Source: an archaeon GW2011_AR5 (lineage in GTDB: Archaea > Aenigmatarchaeota > Aenigmatarchaeia > GW2011-AR5). Taken from it: DNA of 64,000 nt. Location: contig JWKQ01000002.1 of NCBI GenBank assembly GCA_000806115.1, positions 52,497 to 116,496 of the forward strand, written 5' to 3'. The translations under genes and the position numbers were made by a program. Positions 53,936-62,503 of this stretch are shown here, piece by piece. The notes under the pieces were generated by a model. That model was not told where the DNA came from. It did not search any database and saw only the letters and a program-made list of their open reading frames with translations. Position 1 is the first letter of the stretch. Every line of letters starts with the position of its first letter.

Positions 53936-55252
53936 CTATTTTCCGCTTATCAATCCCTTGATTACAAGCTTGGCGGCCCTTGGTATGTCTTTTTTCTTGA
54001 TCGTGGTCATGTTCGCGTAATAGTACGCGCGCACCCTTTCCTCCGCCGTATATTCGGCTGTGTCAAATACGGGCTTCGGCCTGGCGCCGATGTGGAACCC
54101 TTCTTTCCAGTCGCGCAATACCCTTGCGCTGGAATCTTTCTTCACCTGTTCCCATACCTCCGTGCCCGGATAAGGAACAAGAATTCCCCACGATGCCGTT
54201 ATGCCGAGGCGTTTGGCGAACTCCATGCTCCGCTTGTCAGCTTCGTATGTGCTGCCTATGAGCCCTATTATGAAGAATCCGTGAACTTTTATGCCGGCCG
54301 CCTGCGCTAAGCGTATTCCTCGTTCCACGTCTGCCAGTTTTTCTCCTTTTCGTATCTTGTCGAAAACTTCAGGGTCCCCGCTTTCAACGCCTATGGACAT
54401 CGCGTAGCATCCTGCCTGTTTCATCAGCGAGCACAGCTCCTCATCAAGCCTGTCTGCGCGTATTCCGTTGGGACATGTCCATTTCATGTCAAGGTTTTCC
54501 TCAATGAAAAGCCTGCAGATGTCTTTTGCCCTGTCCATCTGGAGCGTGAAGTTGTCGTCAAGCACCTTGAATTCCTTGCTGCTGTATTTCTCCTGCGCAT
54601 ATCTCAGCTCGGCAAGTATATTCTCTCCAGACCTTGTCCTGAACTTCCTTCCTATGACTGTCGGGACGTTGCAGTATGTGCACGTATACGGGCATCCCCT
54701 TGAAGTAACAAGAGGCCAGTTTTCTATCTTCTGTATCTCGCCGTTGATGTTAACCGAGTCAAAATCGTCATAATTTGGAAATGGCAGGGAATCGAGGTTG
54801 GAAATCCATTCGCTTGCGTGGTTTTGCACGACTTTTCCGTCTTTCCTGTAAATGAGCCCGGTGATTTCCGAGGGTTCTTTCCCCGACAGTATCTCTCTGA
54901 AAACGTACTCAGCCTCGCCGAAAACCCCCATATCAAATACGGGATTGTCAACGAGGAGGTTATAGCCGTCCACCATCACGTGAGGCCCGCCTGCGATTAT
55001 TTTCGTCTTCGGGTTCAGTTTTTTCACCATGTTTGCCACCATGATGGATTCGTCAAGCGTGAACGACTTCATGGATATGCCGACGAAGTCCGCGTCTCTT
55101 GCAGACTCGAGTCTTTTGTCGAGGTTTCCCGACCTGTTCACGAAGTCAACGACGTGCACCGTGTGTTCGTCGCGTATACTCGCGGCTATAGAAGCTATGC
55201 CGTTGTTGAGCCCTTCCCACACCCCTTTCGGATCTACAAATACAACTTTCAT
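53936..55252 (-). CDS. B12-binding radical SAM protein
   Basis: It starts at the internal Met MKVVFVDPKG; the ORF-track start is at 55291. It has a B12-binding N-terminus and CPYTCTYCN. Confidence 0.7.
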   Translation of the reverse strand: MKVVFVDPKGVWEGLNNGIASIAASIRDEHTVHVVDFVNRSGNLDKRLESARDADFVGISMKSFTLDESIMVANMVKKLNPKTKIIAGGPHVMVDGYNLLVDNPVFDMGVFGEAEYVFREILSGKEPSEITGLIYRKDGKVVQNHASEWISNLDSLPFPNYDDFDSVNINGEIQKIENWPLVTSRGCPYTCTYCNVPTVIGRKFRTRSGENILAELRYAQEKYSSKEFKVLDDNFTLQMDRAKDICRLFIEENLDMKWTCPNGIRADRLDEELCSLMKQAGCYAMSIGVESGDPEVFDKIRKGEKLADVERGIRLAQAAGIKVHGFFIIGLIGSTYEADKRSMEFAKRLGITASWGILVPYPGTEVWEQVKKDSSARVLRDWKEGFHIGARPKPVFDTAEYTAEERVRAYYYANMTTIKKKDIPRAAKLVIKGLISGK

Positions 55253-55384
55253 GTTATCACCCTGTAAGAAACACCAGAATTCTAAATTCATGTCTAGGTT
55301 CTTAAGTTAATAACACGACAATTTATTTTAAAGTGACATTGGTACAAGCTTCAAAATAAGAACGTCAAAAATCTGTTTTTTAAA

Positions 55385-55479: not shown

Positions 55480-56595
55480 ATGAGGATTGCTCTTTGCACG
55501 GAAATATTGTACCCTCTTTATGGCGTTGAGCGTCGTGTGTACGAGTTTGCGAGGCGTCTGCCGAAGTACGGTTTTGACGTCGAAGTCCTTACGTCCACGC
55601 AGCGCAGCCATTTCAAGCGCCTGAAAATCATCCAGGTAAGCAGGTGCACCATAACAAACCCGCCAAAGCGCAACTACGCTTTCTGCGCAAACTACATGTT
55701 CAGCCTTTTCCGCCAGCTCATGAAGCGCGATTATGATTTGGTGAATGCCGAAGGCCACCTTTCGCTGATTCCGTGTTCGGCTGCTGCTTCTTTGCGCAAG
55801 AAGGTTTCAATAGCGACGATACACGACCTATATCTCAGCGAATGGGGTAGCATGTACAAGAGCGCAGCCTCCCTGGCGGGTCTTCCGTTCGAGGCTGTGT
55901 CATGCAGGATGCCGTTCGACCACGTTCTTACAGTCAATTCTTCCCTGAAGGAAAAAATGAGCTCGGTTCTGAAAATACCCGAGAGAAAAGTGGAAATCCT
56001 GCACAGCGGGATTGACACGGGGTATATCGACTCTGTGAAAGGAAATGGGAAGGACGGTTCTGTAGTTTATGTCGGGCGCCTTGTGCCGCAGAAGGGCATT
56101 GAAATGCTTATCCGTTCATACGCAGTCCTCCCTGAAAATATAAGAAAATCTCACGAACTGAAGATAATCGGCGAAGGCTCGGAGCGCGGCAGGCTCGAAT
56201 CTCTTGCAAAGTCGCTCGGGATTTCAGTCAATTTCACCGGAAAGATAGAGAAGCATGAAGACGTGCTGAAGGAGCTGAAAAAAGCGTCCCTGTTCGTCCT
56301 GCCTTCCGTGCGCGAGAGCTTTGGCATCACAATACTTGAGGCGATGTGCTGCGGGGTGCCGGTAATTTCAACAAGAACAGAAGGCCCGTCGGACCACATA
56401 AGGGACGGCGAGACGGGTTTCCTAGTCGGCGACGGTAGTGGGATGGCAGAAAAGATGGAACTGGTTCTGTCAAGCAGCGTGCTCCGGAAAAAACTGTCAA
56501 GGAACGGCAGGGAATATGCGGCAAAGCACGACTGGGAAAACATCACGAAGAACGTGGCGGGTGTCTACAAAAAAGTTTATGAGAGAAAGCACTAA
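55480..56595 (+). CDS. Glycosyltransferase family 4
   Basis: 371 aa with a GT-B C-terminal EGFGITILEAMCCGVPVIST motif. Confidence 0.7.
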   Translation: MRIALCTEILYPLYGVERRVYEFARRLPKYGFDVEVLTSTQRSHFKRLKIIQVSRCTITNPPKRNYAFCANYMFSLFRQLMKRDYDLVNAEGHLSLIPCSAAASLRKKVSIATIHDLYLSEWGSMYKSAASLAGLPFEAVSCRMPFDHVLTVNSSLKEKMSSVLKIPERKVEILHSGIDTGYIDSVKGNGKDGSVVYVGRLVPQKGIEMLIRSYAVLPENIRKSHELKIIGEGSERGRLESLAKSLGISVNFTGKIEKHEDVLKELKKASLFVLPSVRESFGITILEAMCCGVPVISTRTEGPSDHIRDGETGFLVGDGSGMAEKMELVLSSSVLRKKLSRNGREYAAKHDWENITKNVAGVYKKVYERKH

Positions 56596-56832: not shown

Positions 56833-57936
56833 TTAAAATTTTACCTTGTAAAGCTTTACTTCCCCGCCCCAGTTGTTGACAAATTCAAAGTTCTCCAAAC
56901 CCTGCCCGTTGAACAGGAACATCCTCGTGAACATTGCGCCCTCGAGCTGTTCGGGTATGTAAAGTATTGCGCGGTTTCCCGGCTCTATCCATACCAGTCC
57001 CGGTATGCGCGCATCGCTCTGCGTGTAAAGGCGGCCCTGTCCCGTATTATCGAAGTACAGGAACTTCTCCACCTTCAATGGCTCCGCAATACCCTGCTGC
57101 TGGAAGAACACCGTAAGGCTTCCGTTAGAGTCATAGAGCACAAACGATTCCTGCTGCGAAACCGGATAAGTGTAAATTATGGCGTTCTGCCTGATATCAG
57201 GCCTTGCCTGTCCAAGGGGAATGGAGGCGTACACGTAAGGCGTTCCTTTCTTGTCAACCGGATTCCATGTTGCAAAGTAAGTCCACCACGTGCTCTTCCC
57301 TATCAGGTCTGACGATGCTATGTAATACATTGAGTCGCAGCCTGGCTTCCTGTATTCTTTCAGTATCTCGACGGCAAGGCTTTCATTCGACGTGAGCAGG
57401 GTTGTGGAAATGTCCTGTATGCGCGCCGTTGTTTTGTTCCCGTCCTTGTAAAGGACTATGTGGTTGATGTTGCTGTCGTATTTTTCCACTACAAGCCCTT
57501 CCTGGCCGCTGCTGGTTGGCCTCGCATAAAGATCGCCCTGGGATGCGCCGTCGAAAACCACCGCGCGCCTTCCTATGCCGGTTATGAAATGCCCTGGATC
57601 CCAGTATGTGGCAACAACAGTGCATTCCGGGGTGTTGTTCTTAATCCAGTTCAGAGCGTTGAACCAGTTGTCAGACAGCACTGTGCCCTGAGCCGATGCA
57701 AGCTGCATGCCCGGAGAGAAGTACAGGTAATAGCATATCACGAATATGAACCAGAGGACAAATATGAGCAGCGCTTCTCTTTTTGCAACCTTCTTGGCGT
57801 AGAACAGTCCTCCTGCTATCAGGAGCACAACGACGAACCCTCCAAAAGATATCAAAATATTTTGCCCAAAAGTTGCAAGGGTAACAAGCACCGACAATAC
57901 GAATGCCGCCGCAATGAATATTATGTTCTTTTCCAT
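56833..57936 (-). CDS. aglB: Oligosaccharyltransferase AglB/STT3, C-terminal part (last TM helices + periplasmic/extracellular domain with a WWDYG-type motif)
   Basis: 367 aa with two N-terminal TM helices, then ATYWDPGHFITGIG (a variant WWDYG motif) at 57589-57603. It starts 1 nt after the stop of the TM-domain ORF (TGAcATG). Confidence 0.55.
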   Translation of the reverse strand: MEKNIIFIAAAFVLSVLVTLATFGQNILISFGGFVVVLLIAGGLFYAKKVAKREALLIFVLWFIFVICYYLYFSPGMQLASAQGTVLSDNWFNALNWIKNNTPECTVVATYWDPGHFITGIGRRAVVFDGASQGDLYARPTSSGQEGLVVEKYDSNINHIVLYKDGNKTTARIQDISTTLLTSNESLAVEILKEYRKPGCDSMYYIASSDLIGKSTWWTYFATWNPVDKKGTPYVYASIPLGQARPDIRQNAIIYTYPVSQQESFVLYDSNGSLTVFFQQQGIAEPLKVEKFLYFDNTGQGRLYTQSDARIPGLVWIEPGNRAILYIPEQLEGAMFTRMFLFNGQGLENFEFVNNWGGEVKLYKVKF

Positions 57937-57937
57937 G

Positions 57938-59341
57938 TCAATCGCTCCAGCTCTTGTCCTCTCCGGTTCCCATTCTTATGAGTTTTGCAAGGAATATTGC
58001 GCTGCCTATGGCTAGCGGCGCTGAAAACAGCGTGCTGAACCTTATCGCCACTATCGTTGCGAGGAATGGTCCAAGGAACCACACAAGCAGCAGCAGCACC
58101 GTATCAACATGATGTCTCTTCTGGTAGTATGAGTAGAGAAGGTAAATCAGGGTGTAAATCATCAGGAAGAATGATGAGATGAGTATGGCGGGTCCGCCGA
58201 CGACGCTGGTGCGCTCTATTATTTCGCGCGGTCCGCCGGATTGCTGGAGTTCCGCCACCGACACATATACGTTCGGGAACTGGTAGTCCTCGCCTTTTAT
58301 TGACTGGAACTGTATCGGTCCCGCGAGCGCCGAGGTGATTTTCGTGTCGCCATACGACGGCACCGTCAGCGCGAAGGAAAGCGCGGTGTAGATGACGAAA
58401 CTTATTATTATGTATTTTGTGTCGTGCCAGCCCAGCTTGACGTTTCGTTTCTTCATTATAGTGAAGAGCAGCTTGAGGGCAATGAATCCCGTGAAAAGCC
58501 ACGTTATGTACCAGTATCCTGCCCATGTGGAGTACCATACCCAGAGCACAACAGAAGTGAGAACTGAATAGAGCAGCAGCTTCTTGTCAAGCCGTTTTGA
58601 TTCACTGGCGTATTTGTACGTGAAAATCATTGCAGCCATGACTATCGTGGATACCAGTATGACTATTGCATCCGAGTCGGGGTCTCCCCCGAGGCTTCTC
58701 GACAGGTTGCTGATGTCGAAGACGTAGATGAATGCTGCAAGGACGCCCGCGCGCCTGTCATATAACATCTTGCCTATGAAGTAGAGAGGTATCACTGCTA
58801 GCGTGGCTAAAAATGGCGGGAAATATATCAGGAATTCCCATAGCTGCATTGGCGTTAGCGCGTTTACCGCCATGTAGCTGTACGCGCCTATGTAGAAATA
58901 CGGGTACACCCATTCCGGCGGCCTGTAAAAGCCCACAGGCGCCAGCTCATAAGTGTCCAGTGTCGGCAGGACGCCGTTGTTAATAACTGTCTCGTCCATC
59001 CATCTGTAAAATACGTACGAGTCTATGTTCCTCAGGTAAGGCCAGCGGTAATCTATCAGGCGTACGTACATGCTGAGGAGCATTATTATGATTATGGCGA
59101 CTACTGTCCACCTGCTTTTCATCAAATCCTTGAATTTTCTTCTCTTGATTTTCTCAGTCGTGTGAGCGTAGAGATAGTATAGAAGCGCTCCAAGAAGTGG
59201 GATTACAATGGCCAGGACCGCCCACTTTATGGGTTTTCGCGTCCTGATTATGTCCGACAGCGACCAGACTAGTGAGGTTATCCACAGCGCAATCAGAATG
59301 ATGAAAGATGTTGCCAGAATCCCGGCTATTTCATGCGTCAT
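57938..59341 (-). CDS. aglB: Oligosaccharyltransferase AglB/STT3, N-terminal multi-TM part
   Basis: 467 aa, about 11-13 TM helices. There is a first-loop acidic motif region, a DPDSD (DxD-like) and an EL5-like SVAE (compare SVSE/TIxE). Confidence 0.55.
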   Translation of the reverse strand: MTHEIAGILATSFIILIALWITSLVWSLSDIIRTRKPIKWAVLAIVIPLLGALLYYLYAHTTEKIKRRKFKDLMKSRWTVVAIIIIMLLSMYVRLIDYRWPYLRNIDSYVFYRWMDETVINNGVLPTLDTYELAPVGFYRPPEWVYPYFYIGAYSYMAVNALTPMQLWEFLIYFPPFLATLAVIPLYFIGKMLYDRRAGVLAAFIYVFDISNLSRSLGGDPDSDAIVILVSTIVMAAMIFTYKYASESKRLDKKLLLYSVLTSVVLWVWYSTWAGYWYITWLFTGFIALKLLFTIMKKRNVKLGWHDTKYIIISFVIYTALSFALTVPSYGDTKITSALAGPIQFQSIKGEDYQFPNVYVSVAELQQSGGPREIIERTSVVGGPAILISSFFLMIYTLIYLLYSYYQKRHHVDTVLLLLVWFLGPFLATIVAIRFSTLFSAPLAIGSAIFLAKLIRMGTGEDKSWSD

Positions 59342-59385: not shown

Positions 59386-59967
59386 TTATCGTTTTCTTCC
59401 GACAGCTATGTAATTCATGCCAGCCTCGAAATTCTCTGATACAGTAATAGAGAAGCCGTTTTTTCCCAGCAATTTCTCTATCTCTTTGGGGGTGAAGTAA
59501 TGTTTGTGGTCTTCCGTGGTCTTTTCTTCCGTCAGCCCGAGTTTCACAAGAGTCTCCCAGAAAGGCTTGGCTCTTCCCATCGGCGTCGTTATTATTATCG
59601 TGCCGTCTTTCTTCAGCACCCTTCTTACCTCCGACAGGACTTTTTCCGGTTTCTCCAGGTGTTCTATGAATGCTATCATCGTGGCGACGTCAAACATACC
59701 GGACTTGAAAGGCAGCTTCTCGTCAATGCGTGTCCTCCTTATTGTTATGTTGCCGTCCTTCCTGTCCTTCACGGCTATGTCAATGCCGATGCCTCCCTTG
59801 ATCTTGTCCTTTACGGATCTGAGAAGATAGTAATCGCTGCCGCATCCCATGTCGAGCATTGTGGCGCCAGCCGGCACGTATTCCGCCACTTTTTTGTTGC
59901 GTATCACCCTGAAAAATTTGACGAAAAATTTTGTTTTCTTTTCCGCGCTCGTCTTCTTTCGGTTCAT
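59386..59967 (-). CDS. Class I SAM-dependent methyltransferase
   Basis: 193 aa with motif I LDMGCGSD. Confidence 0.6.
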   Translation of the reverse strand: MNRKKTSAEKKTKFFVKFFRVIRNKKVAEYVPAGATMLDMGCGSDYYLLRSVKDKIKGGIGIDIAVKDRKDGNITIRRTRIDEKLPFKSGMFDVATMIAFIEHLEKPEKVLSEVRRVLKKDGTIIITTPMGRAKPFWETLVKLGLTEEKTTEDHKHYFTPKEIEKLLGKNGFSITVSENFEAGMNYIAVGRKR

Positions 59968-60017
59968 TTAGAAAACTTGGTTTTATCCTTTTTAAGCTGT
60001 TTTTACCTAATTTTCGC

Positions 60018-60674
60018 ATGTTGTCAGTGATAATACCAACAATCAACGAGGAAAAATCCATCGGCAGCACCATCAAATTCGTCGGCAAAGCGCTGAAGGG
60101 GGTGCGCCACGAGATAATAATAATCGACACGAATTCTACGGACCGCACTGTGAGCATTGCCAAGTCGCTCGGCGCGAAAGTTGTGAACGAACCCAGGCGC
60201 GGCTACGGGCGCGCGTACAAAACAGGCTTCAGGCACGCCAAAGGTGGGATAATCGTTACGCTTGACGCCGACTCGACATATCCGGTAGAAGACACAATGA
60301 AGCTCGTTTCTGCGCTTGAGAACGGCTTTGATTTTGTGTCGGGCATGAGGATTCGTTCGGAGAACATGTCGCTTCTGCACCGCTTCGGCAACTGGGCAAT
60401 AACCGCGACGGCAAACGTCCTTTTCTTCACGCGTTTCATGGACAGCCAGTCGGGGATGTGGGTCTTCAAAAAATCGCTTTTGAAAAGCATGAAATTGACA
60501 AACGACAGCTGGCCGTTCTCGGGAGAGATAAAGATAGAAGCCTGGCGTCACGGACGCTTTTGCGAGGTTCCGATACCGTACGGGCTGCGCAAGGGGCAGT
60601 CAAAAGTCCGAAGCTGGAAGGTTGGCTGGGAAAACATAAAATTCCTGTTCAAGAAGCGCTTTGGGGTGAGCTGA
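60018..60674 (+). CDS. GT2 glycosyltransferase, Dpm1-like
   Basis: It starts at the internal Met MLSVIIPTINEE; the ORF-track start is at 59931. It has IIIIDTNSTDRT and DADS. Confidence 0.65.
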   Translation: MLSVIIPTINEEKSIGSTIKFVGKALKGVRHEIIIIDTNSTDRTVSIAKSLGAKVVNEPRRGYGRAYKTGFRHAKGGIIVTLDADSTYPVEDTMKLVSALENGFDFVSGMRIRSENMSLLHRFGNWAITATANVLFFTRFMDSQSGMWVFKKSLLKSMKLTNDSWPFSGEIKIEAWRHGRFCEVPIPYGLRKGQSKVRSWKVGWENIKFLFKKRFGVS

Positions 60675-61328
60675 ATGAAACTCAATCCAAAATATCTTGA
60701 CCCGAAGAAGACTGCAGTCATAGTTGTGGATCTCCAGAATGACTTCTGTCATGAGATAAGCGTGCTTCACAGAAAAAGGTCGCGAAATAAGGCGTGCGCA
60801 TTAAGGGTTTACAAATTTATCGAGGAAGCAGGGAAAGCCGGTGTGGAAGTTCTTTTCGCGCAGCAGATACACGATCCAAGAAAACTGACGTGGCGCCAGA
60901 AAAAATACTATGAAAGGGTTGCATCTGGCGAAAGGGAATTTGGTGCCTATAAGGGAAAACTCAAAATTCCGTGCGCGATGGGAACCTTCGGTGCGGAATA
61001 CTTTGATTACAAACCGCCGAAGAACAAGCTTTTCGTAAAGAGTGGTTTCGATATATGGCAAAACGAACAATTCAAAGAATTCCTAGACAAACATAAGATA
61101 GAAACGCTGATTATAACAGGCGTGGAGCTGACATGCTGTATCCTTTACGCAGTCCTTGGCGCAGAGGAGCGCGGCTTCAATATAGTAGTCCCAAAAGATC
61201 TCGTGTCTGGAGTGGATGAGGGAAAGAGAAGTCAAGATAATTTGCTAAAGATAATAGGAGAAATGTATGCCCCTGTTGTTAATTCTGAACAGATTTTGAA
61301 GATATGGACTCAAAAGAGCGGCGTATAG
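60675..61328 (+). CDS. Isochorismatase-family cysteine hydrolase
   Basis: 217 aa with KTAVIVVDLQNDFC, and a catalytic Cys in GVELTCCI. Confidence 0.7.
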   Translation: MKLNPKYLDPKKTAVIVVDLQNDFCHEISVLHRKRSRNKACALRVYKFIEEAGKAGVEVLFAQQIHDPRKLTWRQKKYYERVASGEREFGAYKGKLKIPCAMGTFGAEYFDYKPPKNKLFVKSGFDIWQNEQFKEFLDKHKIETLIITGVELTCCILYAVLGAEERGFNIVVPKDLVSGVDEGKRSQDNLLKIIGEMYAPVVNSEQILKIWTQKSGV

Positions 61329-62503
61329 AAGAAAGGCGAGCTTATTCTCTGCGTAACATGCAGCATTACGAATCCCGCCATCAGCAGGACAAATATCGCG
61401 TACAATGCCATAATTCCGTAGCTGAGTTTTTTGTTCTCGATTGTTGACAGCGCCATGAATGCAGGGAAAACAACAAGCATATATCTCGACATTCCAAACA
61501 GGTTGGGCCCGAAAAGAAGCGCCGCCATGGTGAGCAAATAATATGCGGTGTATTCGTGCCTGAGTCTTTTGTAAGACACCCATATCAGCGCTATGAACGA
61601 AACGGTGATGAACAGGTTGTAAATATGATAGGACAGATTTATTAATGTCGTGTCGATTATCATGCCATTGATCGCATGGACGAAGCCCTCCCACGGCGGC
61701 GTTAGATGCCTGCCGAACACGGAAGCGCTCTTGAGTTGTATGAACGCGTCGCCGAATGTTACAAGGTCGTACAGCATGAACGCAAGAAAGCCCGCCGGTA
61801 TCAGCAGAAGAGGCAATGAGCTTGCTTTGATTTTTTTGAGGCTGGAAAAAGGTGACTTGTAATTATAACCGGCGCATCTCAGGTACATTATCAGTATTGG
61901 TATGAACAAAAGCACTCCCTGTATTCTTGTGAGCGACGTGAAGAATCCCAGAATTCCTGCCGCAAGCCATTTCTCCTTTCTTGCTGCGTAGAACACCGAA
62001 AGCGAAAGCAGAAGGAACAGGGATTCGGTGTACATCATTGTGAAATAATATGCAGTCGGGAAAAGCAGGAGATAAAGCCCTGTTTTGTACGCGCGTTTCT
62101 TTCCAAGTTCCTGGCTTACGAGAAGGTATAATACCATGACTGCGAGAATTGACGCGATGTTTGCTATAAGGAATGCAGCCAGGTCATACCCCATGAAGCT
62201 GAAGGTTCGGATGAGCAACGGATAAAGCGGGTACCAGTGATAATTGCCGATTCCGCCGAAATTGCCGTTGTATCCGTTCTTTGCTATGTCAAGGTATGCA
62301 GTAGAGTCGTATTGTGCAAAAGGATTCAGGAACCGGTTGTCCGTCACGTGTTGCGTGTGCGTGATTTCTGCGGGGACTACGAACTGTATGGAAACTGCAA
62401 GCACTATCACAAACACTTTCATGATAAGGAAGGCGTAGAGAATTCGCCTGAACTCTCTTTCCTTCCACAGTTCGCGAAGTTTTGACAGCATTCCAACCAA
62501 CAC
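61310..62503 (-). CDS. GT-C fold membrane mannosyltransferase-like protein (PIG-V / GT76-like)
   Basis: 397 aa, multi-TM. The motif YDSTAYLDIAKNGY...WYPLYPLL resembles the PIG-V hallmark (D..YL.IA..GY......FFPLYP). Confidence 0.5.
   Translation of the reverse strand: MLVGMLSKLRELWKEREFRRILYAFLIMKVFVIVLAVSIQFVVPAEITHTQHVTDNRFLNPFAQYDSTAYLDIAKNGYNGNFGGIGNYHWYPLYPLLIRTFSFMGYDLAAFLIANIASILAVMVLYLLVSQELGKKRAYKTGLYLLLFPTAYYFTMMYTESLFLLLSLSVFYAARKEKWLAAGILGFFTSLTRIQGVLLFIPILIMYLRCAGYNYKSPFSSLKKIKASSLPLLLIPAGFLAFMLYDLVTFGDAFIQLKSASVFGRHLTPPWEGFVHAINGMIIDTTLINLSYHIYNLFITVSFIALIWVSYKRLRHEYTAYYLLTMAALLFGPNLFGMSRYMLVVFPAFMALSTIENKKLSYGIMALYAIFVLLMAGFVMLHVTQRISSPFFYTPLF

Follow-up and report, generated by a model that had tools for sequence, protein, structure and literature searches.

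In the catalytic subunits of oligosaccharyltransferases (OSTs), the active site is formed jointly by a membrane domain and an external domain, and to our knowledge all those characterised so far (PglB, AglB and STT3) are single chains. The locus described here raises the question of whether an archaeon can encode this enzyme as two genes. It lies on contig JWKQ01000002.1 of archaeon GW2011_AR5 (AR5; Aenigmatarchaeota), within a stretch of 64,000 nucleotides which was analysed as a whole and is called the window below; unless another contig is named, positions refer to it. Two adjacent open reading frames (ORFs) on the minus strand together resemble one archaeal AglB: an ORF of 467 aa (59341..57938), called the N-half, and an ORF of 367 aa reading from the ATG at 57936-57934 to 56833, called the C-half. 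The evidence presented below indicates that they represent an evolutionarily fixed gene fission of archaeal AglB (STT3/PglB family, glycosyltransferase fold GT-C) in a clade of Aenigmatarchaeota, which probably results in a conserved two-polypeptide OST catalytic unit.

Read directly from the sequence, the N-half ends with TGA at 57940-57938, a single spacer C stands at 57937, and the ATG of the C-half follows. The junction TGA-C-ATG occupies 57934..57940 of the minus strand, with the frame of the C-half offset by +1 from that of the N-half. An earlier reading of this DNA made from the letters alone (the sequence-only reading) had given coordinates and lengths for both ORFs (467 aa, 367 aa, TGA, ATG 57936), all of which were correct. 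It had also taken the two ORFs, 834 aa in total, for one full-length AglB, in agreement with fused relatives of 706-826 aa that are collinear over both of them. In GenBank, the N-half of archaeon GW2011_AR5 is KHO47478.1 (100% identical) and the C-half is KHO47477.1 (identical), each annotated as dolichyl-diphosphooligosaccharide-protein glycosyltransferase. The split gene models have been public as two separate OST genes but apparently have not been discussed.

Conservation of the split among relatives

The exact sequence of the N-half was found on nine contigs and that of the C-half on ten, from NCBI, JGI and ENA assemblies. The close relatives all come from Candidatus Aenigmatarchaeota, a phylum of the DPANN archaea. 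The synteny scan, with one genome per GTDB species, covered 21 Aenigmatarchaeota loci, 19 of which showed both parts. In all 19 the two halves are separate ORFs with the N-half first, and no locus carries a fused gene. At the amino acid level, the N-halves of these loci are about 37-92% identical to that of AR5, and the C-halves about 43-84%. The sequence-only reading had considered the split deliberate rather than a random frameshift and had proposed that the aglB loci of relatives be compared; this comparison bears it out, as an uninterrupted aglB at the syntenic position occurs in 0/19 loci and the split in 19/19.

The database searches gave the same picture for each half. More than 120 homologue clusters were obtained for the C-half, at 44-99% identity, and the best 120 of them are about 300-430 aa long, with the exception of a few fragments and extended calls of at most 488 aa. 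The N-half likewise has more than 120 homologue clusters, of which the best 120, apart from some shorter fragments, measure about 390-470 aa. In the exhaustive HMMER search of 1.84 billion representatives, the matches stronger than E = 5e-46 were all stand-alone proteins of 140-435 aa, the shortest being fragments. Compared with a relative that is 84-92% identical (L001), the ratio of nonsynonymous to synonymous substitution rates (dN/dS) was 0.028 in the N-half and 0.052 in the C-half at a dS of about 1.8. The split is real and old, and both halves are under purifying selection.

The orthologous junctions differ in their details. The N-half stops with TGA, TAA or TAG, and the ATG of the C-half follows after 1, 2, 4 or 7 nt or overlaps the stop as ATGA; a gap of at most 7 nt or an ATGA overlap was present at 15 of the 19 junctions. 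Every C-half begins with Met right at the junction. Wherever orthologous halves abut, a purine motif resembling a Shine-Dalgarno (SD) sequence (GGAGG, GAGGA, GGTGAT) stands 5-12 nt before the ATG of the C-half, and in AR5 the motif is GGAG (57945..57948, minus strand), 8 nt upstream of the C-half ATG and inside the last N-half codons. As a background, the same core patterns precede 13 of the 63 ORFs of the window. The presence of an SD-like motif at every abutting junction argues for independent initiation. The N-half also has a conserved acidic tail (...GED...D/E), which may partly reflect the embedded ribosome-binding site.

In the sequence-only reading, TGAcATG had been regarded as a sign of special translational coupling. 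This part was not specifically supported, because such packing is common in the window and adjacency is not obligatory in the relatives. In the window, roughly one in two pairs of co-directional neighbours is separated by at most 5 nt or overlaps by 4 nt; the gap of 1 nt is normal packing in this genome and therefore no special evidence for coupling. Translational coupling of the halves is possible, and co-expression with independent initiation, which the lineages with an intervening gene suggest to be feasible, appears to fit the data at least as well.

In three lineages (L007, L009 and L020), a complete gene for a 220-aa protein of the Methyltransf_11 family is present between the N-half and the C-half. 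In L009 it occupies 2120-2782 and encodes an S-adenosylmethionine (SAM)-dependent methyltransferase of 220 aa (Pfam Methyltransf_11, E 2e-21), and the same was found in L007 and L020. The AR5 counterpart of the same broad class is located just upstream of the N-half (59386-59967, minus strand) and not between the halves. In L018, an ORF of 54 aa with two predicted transmembrane (TM) helices (2627-2791) lies between the N-half and a C-half with one TM helix; it may represent the two extra C-half helices encoded apart, or a frameshift in this short contig of 3.6 kb.

The closest GTDB relative, L001, carries a deletion of about 26 nt in its N-half (L001:4940-4960), in the region of external loop 1 (EL1), and the frame is shifted just after the catalytic Asp. 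After ...NIDSYVF the residues YRWMDETVI are missing. The deletion is either an assembly error or a sign of a pseudogenised copy. A gene call of 348 aa with eight members (P0141) may correspond to the same deleted state.

Position of the cut and division of the OST fold

The N-half gene (57938..59341, minus strand) scored 70.9 bits against Pfam STT3 PF02516 (gathering score 24.5, E 2e-19) over profile positions 4-370 of 405, and its product aligns with Archaeoglobus fulgidus AglB-L (AfAglB; PDB 3WAJ/5GMY; phmmer, E 2e-5). Two extra N-terminal TM helices (residues 1-60) precede TM1-TM12 with EL1 and external loop 5 (EL5), and the cytoplasmic tail ends ...RMGTGEDKSWSD. Residue conservation was counted over 36 N-halves, 36 C-halves and 34 fused relatives aligned together, and the coordinates of the motifs given below are on the minus strand. 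D107 in EL1 (codon 59021..59023), which phmmer aligns to the catalytic D47 of AfAglB (3WAJ), corresponds to Asp in 36/36 split N-halves and in 34/34 fused relatives. The DPDSD motif (residues 220-224; 58670..58684) aligns to D161-H-H163 of AfAglB, and its D222-x-D224 constitutes the second acidic DxD/DxH metal-binding motif; both Asp residues are invariant in the split N-halves (36/36). SVAE in EL5 (residues 361-364; 58250..58261) is presumably the equivalent of the TIXE/SVSE-type motif with the catalytic Glu, and E364 is conserved in all 36 split N-halves and in 32 of the 34 fused relatives. The conserved RF motif at the TM11/TM12 boundary contains R434 (codon 58040..58042), aligned to the RF of AfAglB within chain residues 385-444. 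This Arg, present in every split N-half (36/36) and every fused relative (34/34), is presumably the residue with which OSTs bind the donor pyrophosphate (R426 in AfAglB).

The two-helix extension at the N-terminus (residues 1-60; 59162-59341, minus strand) resembles PLDc_N weakly and at a score below the threshold (PF13396, E 0.018). It is found only in the closest relatives, with N-halves of about 465 aa, and is absent from most others (about 400 aa).

The C-half gene (56833..57936, minus strand) encodes three TM helices followed by an external catalytic and sequon-binding domain. It matches archaeo_STT3 TIGR04154 at positions 463-617 of 831 (E 4e-6, 25.6 bits vs a curated cut-off of 450) and PF22627 AglB_core-like (15.2 bits vs a threshold of 27), as well as mammalian STT3A over the WWDYG region (E 3e-5) and the C-terminal domain of Pyrococcus AglB (PfAglB). 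Its homology to the OST C-terminal domain is clear from the fused relatives (E 5e-46 and weaker) and from the fold. YWDPGH (residues 111-116; 57589..57606, minus strand) aligns to the WWDYG of STT3A and is its equivalent, a variant in which W, D and G are retained; YWDPG is invariant in 36/36 split C-halves, and the fused relatives carry WWDPGH. About 60 residues past YWDPGH there is a conserved block R-I-x-D-(I/V/M)-x-x-x-(L/F)-x-T-x-N-E, whose equivalence to the DK/MI motif, the one that in OSTs completes the pocket for the +2 Ser/Thr, was judged by eye.

Two TM helices had been counted in the C-half by the sequence-only reading. Hydropathy showed three before YWDPGH, at residues 5-23, 27-45 and 55-73 (57718..57924, minus strand), and the AlphaFold helices 471-494, 500-513 and 521-540 of the concatenated halves are the same three. 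The last is the equivalent of TM13, and the other two are lineage-specific. Three TM segments are predicted in 73 of 117 complete C-halves, one in 34 and five in 5, so that the number is odd in 112/117, as is needed to place the YWDPGH domain outside the cell.

The alignment with the fused relatives located the cut. The N-half ends a few residues past the RFxxLFSAP helix (TM12), and at this point the fused relatives have a short basic loop, one TM helix (TM13) and the external domain. The cut is thus in the cytoplasmic TM12-TM13 loop, and both products are predicted to have their N-termini inside. The helix map of the AlphaFold model gives the same division, as the first ORF contains two lineage-specific helices, TM1, EL1, TM2-TM9, EL5 and TM10-TM12, while the second begins with two extra helices, followed by the equivalent of TM13 and by the external domain. 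The topology of 13 TM helices with EL1, EL5 and an external C-terminal domain is present solely when both ORFs are combined.

The AlphaFold model of the concatenated halves, based on an alignment of unpaired halves with the 34 fused relatives as anchors, had a mean pLDDT (predicted local distance difference test) of 88.8 and a pTM (predicted template modelling score) of 0.86. An alignment of the unpaired halves alone was discarded because the C-halves were misplaced onto the membrane domain (14-18% identity), and the model built without an alignment (pLDDT 40.8) was not used. Foldseek matched the concatenate model over its full length to PglB (6GXC/5OGL, E about 4e-18, target TM-score 0.65-0.67), and also at full length to AfAglB (3WAK, 7E9S), yeast STT3 and human STT3. 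Judged by its sequence and its predicted fold, the pair is a member of the STT3/AglB/PglB family (CAZy GT66), with chain number as the point of difference. In place of a single polypeptide there are two ORFs with their own starts in 19/19 loci, and the pair has the characteristics of a DPANN-type split gene: it is collinear with fused relatives, cut in a loop, fixed in the lineage and under selection.

Weighing of the explanations

The two-polypeptide enzyme could function as follows. The two cistrons of one operon would be translated separately, the second from its own ATG behind its own SD-like site. The product of the first gene would provide TM1-TM12 with the acidic residues of EL1 and DxD, the EL5 Glu and the donor-binding Arg, and that of the second an N-in, C-out anchor, formed by the TM13 equivalent with two extra helices before it, and the external YWDPGH sequon-binding domain. 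Each polypeptide would insert independently with its native topology kept, and the halves would associate non-covalently in the membrane, where a single active site would be rebuilt between the membrane part and the external domain. Once assembled, the enzyme would attach a lipid-linked glycan, synthesised by the glycosyltransferases encoded nearby, to Asn residues of surface proteins, and adjacency in one operon would give co-expression. Separate translation is what the junctions suggest; we infer two-chain assembly and OST activity from the co-conservation of the halves and from the division of the catalytic residues between them. The split-bearing clade of Aenigmatarchaeota as a whole probably carries out N-glycosylation in this way, via a two-subunit core made of a TM1-12 chain and a chain with TM13 and the sequon-binding external domain.

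An offset of 1 nt between collinear ORFs is typical of an indel error, which is why a mistake in sequencing or assembly, or else a frameshift that recently turned a single aglB into a pseudogene, has to be considered. Moreover, L001 has its 26-nt deletion and frameshift elsewhere in the N-half, and in an unrelated lineage a lone contig (L023, the same as L024) has a simple frameshift near the corresponding position. This explanation is nevertheless vanishingly improbable, given the identical sequences on 9-10 contigs from NCBI, JGI and ENA, the split in each of the 19 informative species loci, even where the identity is about 40%, the more than 100 clusters per half, and the dN/dS of 0.03-0.05 in both AR5 halves; each C-half also starts with Met at the junction, with an SD-like motif before it. 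The same stop and start, 1 nt apart and with the C-half in the +1 frame, could be read as a site at which one polypeptide is made by TGA read-through or other recoding, by programmed frameshifting or by ribosomal bypassing, and short overlaps or gaps such as those of the relatives could allow a frameshift. No single mechanism fits three stop codons, frames +1 and -1, and gaps of 1-7 nt or ATGA overlaps, however, and three lineages have a whole methyltransferase gene between the halves and one an ORF of 54 aa. No conserved slippery sequence was present at the junctions, where the ATG and the SD-like site are conserved instead. The varied stops and frames across orthologous junctions exclude TGA read-through and any single programmed frameshift, and a recoded single chain is altogether highly improbable. 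Read-through of the TGA and sequencing error had been the alternatives of the sequence-only reading; they are ruled out by the junction diversity, the intervening genes, the replicate contigs and the conservation.

Halves encoded apart may also be rejoined after translation, as in some split genes of DPANN archaea; the DNA polymerase of Nanoarchaeum equitans is encoded by a split gene whose products are rejoined by a split intein. For the AglB halves, protein trans-splicing by a split intein has a practically negligible probability. The total of 834 aa, which includes the lineage-specific helices, leaves no room for intein halves of about 100-150 aa, the fused relatives are collinear up to the junction on both sides, and neither ORF has an intein or Hint domain according to Pfam. 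The N-half ends with Asp and the C-half starts with Met-Glu-Lys, so the Cys, Ser or Thr nucleophile is missing. A different explanation accepts that the split is real and holds that its products are not an OST, for example because the N-half is a lone GT-C glycosyltransferase or the pair a decaying relic, and that a fused AglB elsewhere carries out N-glycosylation. Many archaea have several AglB paralogues, other Aenigmatarchaeota encode fused AglBs of 675-800 aa, and the WWDYG and DK motifs of the split form are non-canonical (YWDPGH; the DK Lys is lost). On the other hand, the halves are kept together and in the same order at 19/19 loci under strong purifying selection, and the full set of OST catalytic residues is retained and spread over both of them, which is hard to reconcile with either half acting alone as an OST. 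The listed contigs that carry fused forms (including 610-791 kb) and split forms (including 918, 399 and 391 kb), those of 610-791 kb and of 918 kb being close to the size of a genome, have no length in common, which hints that the two forms replace each other and are mutually exclusive. No further STT3 homologue was found within the window. We consider this explanation unlikely.

The fission of aglB into a two-chain enzyme remains the preferred explanation, and several observations weigh against it. The C-half alone is below the curated thresholds of PF22627 and TIGR04154, and the Lys of the DK motif is not kept in the split clade, where the position is mostly T or I, while many fused relatives have K or R. 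The junction and the three C-half TM helices (residues 460-555) form the sole low-confidence stretch of the model (pLDDT 44-64). As the modelled chain was covalently joined, the model indicates that the parts sum to a canonical OST and does not test non-covalent association. The assembly of the chains and their OST activity are predictions from sequence. A second, fused aglB with a housekeeping role elsewhere in the genome is possible. Finally, in the rough neighbour-joining tree, a fused subclade of P0260 and P0265, the latter a fragment of a fused gene, is placed beside two stand-alone forms.

Evolution, known systems and gene neighbourhood

Fused AglBs of other Aenigmatarchaeota have 675-830 aa and are 25-38% identical to the AR5 halves; examples are MBI2547531.1 (P0302, 706 aa), MBN2095185.1 (P0260, 826 aa) and MCD6478156.1 (P0387, 720 aa). 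The neighbour-joining tree, based on the C-terminal domain, grouped the split forms, about 25 clusters at 50% identity, in one clade. The position of the fused P0260/P0265 subclade beside split forms means that a single origin of the split is not established, and the tree is compatible with two possible histories, one fission followed by re-fusion or more than one fission.

Neither of two candidates for independent splits gave a convincing case. P0354 is a fragment of a fused gene. P0340 (L023:1-1564), which belongs to an unrelated AglB lineage, has a frame change at the same loop; its N-part ends ...RFVLLLVPAFGVAVGTFWTNV directly before the stop, and a C-part of 396 aa starts 8 nt before that stop. 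The fused relatives of this lineage have 850-950 aa and a WWDFGH motif. As L024 is 100% identical to L023, the two are a single observation, and one contig sequence is indistinguishable from a simple frameshift.

The single-chain enzymes AglB (A. fulgidus AglB-L, 3WAJ/3WAK/5GMY/7E9S) and PglB (3RCE, 5OGL, 6GXC) share with the AR5 pair the GT-C fold, the domain order and the 13 core TM helices, along with the EL1 Asp, the DxD, the EL5 Glu, the Arg of the RF motif, a WWDYG-type motif and a location in a glycosylation gene cluster. Unlike them, the pair consists of two ORFs cut between TM12 and TM13, and by inference of two chains, has YWDPGH, does not keep the DK Lys, and possesses additional TM helices, one pair opening the N-half and another preceding TM13 in the C-half. 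The sequence identity to the solved OSTs is only about 15%. The closest full-length relatives are the fused AglBs of Aenigmatarchaeota, which have in common with the pair the WWDPGH-type variant, the RF helix, the C-terminal domain and the phylum, and differ from it in the uninterrupted ORF, with a short continuous linker at the cut site and, in most of them, a single TM13.

Split genes of Nanoarchaeum equitans include those of reverse gyrase, alanyl-tRNA synthetase and RNA polymerase B, in part described in PMC3655853. The AglB halves resemble such DPANN split genes in that a chain that is single elsewhere is encoded by two genes, in the cut at a loop or domain boundary, in the reduced-genome lineage and in the presumed non-covalent assembly. 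They differ from those examples in being adjacent and co-oriented and in encoding a polytopic membrane enzyme. In PMC3655853, STT3/AglB is absent from the discussion of split genes, and the sole mention of STT3 is unrelated. Another enzyme of N-glycosylation offers a precedent from the same pathway, as Alg13/Alg14 and MurG/Agl24 are split and fused forms with fission and re-fusion (PMC4973528, PMC8993221). In both cases a gene fused in some lineages corresponds to two polypeptides in others, which interact in Alg13/Alg14. Alg13/Alg14 differs in its GT-B fold (a membrane anchor and a soluble catalytic half), in the reaction and in the cut. A published split AglB or STT3 was not found in the literature searched on AglB/STT3 in Aenigmarchaeota, DPANN and split genes, and AglB surveys may mention one.

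If the two-chain reading is correct, the STT3 membrane domain would not need to be covalently linked to the external domain, and the modules would find each other untethered. The external module that recognises the acceptor would be a separable subunit, able to evolve, be exchanged or be regulated independently; such independent evolution is suggested by the variable anchors of 1, 3 or 5 TM helices and by the genes between the halves. The pair would correspond, in a prokaryote, to a step toward multi-subunit OSTs and would provide a ready design for split or modular OSTs and for swaps of acceptor-binding domains. With it, the split genes that are typical of reduced DPANN genomes would come to include a polytopic membrane enzyme, and a dated fission, possibly with re-fusion, would be available inside one phylum. 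A likely annotation problem would be explained as well: the C-halves are mostly labelled 'hypothetical protein', and the half-length N-halves may be counted as truncated AglB in surveys of DPANN genomes. The chemistry of N-glycosylation is unchanged, so the reach of the finding is moderate.

Judging from the predicted functions of its neighbours, the aglB pair sits in a glycosylation gene cluster. The SAM-dependent methyltransferase gene directly upstream of the N-half (59386..59967, minus strand) matches Pfam Methyltransf_23/11. Glycosyltransferases of families GT4 (55480-56595, plus strand) and GT2 (59931-60674, plus strand) lie on either side of the pair, and the cluster further includes a UDP-glucose dehydrogenase, a nucleotidyltransferase and an epimerase/dehydratase. 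A B12-binding radical-SAM enzyme (53936-55291, minus strand), located among the sugar-nucleotide and glycosyltransferase genes, may modify, e.g., methylate, the glycan or its precursor. An ORF of 397 aa (61310-62503, minus strand) with weak similarity to PMT_2 (dolichyl-phosphate-mannose protein mannosyltransferase-like, GT-C; 23.5 bits vs a threshold of 26.1) could be a second GT-C glycosyltransferase of the cluster.

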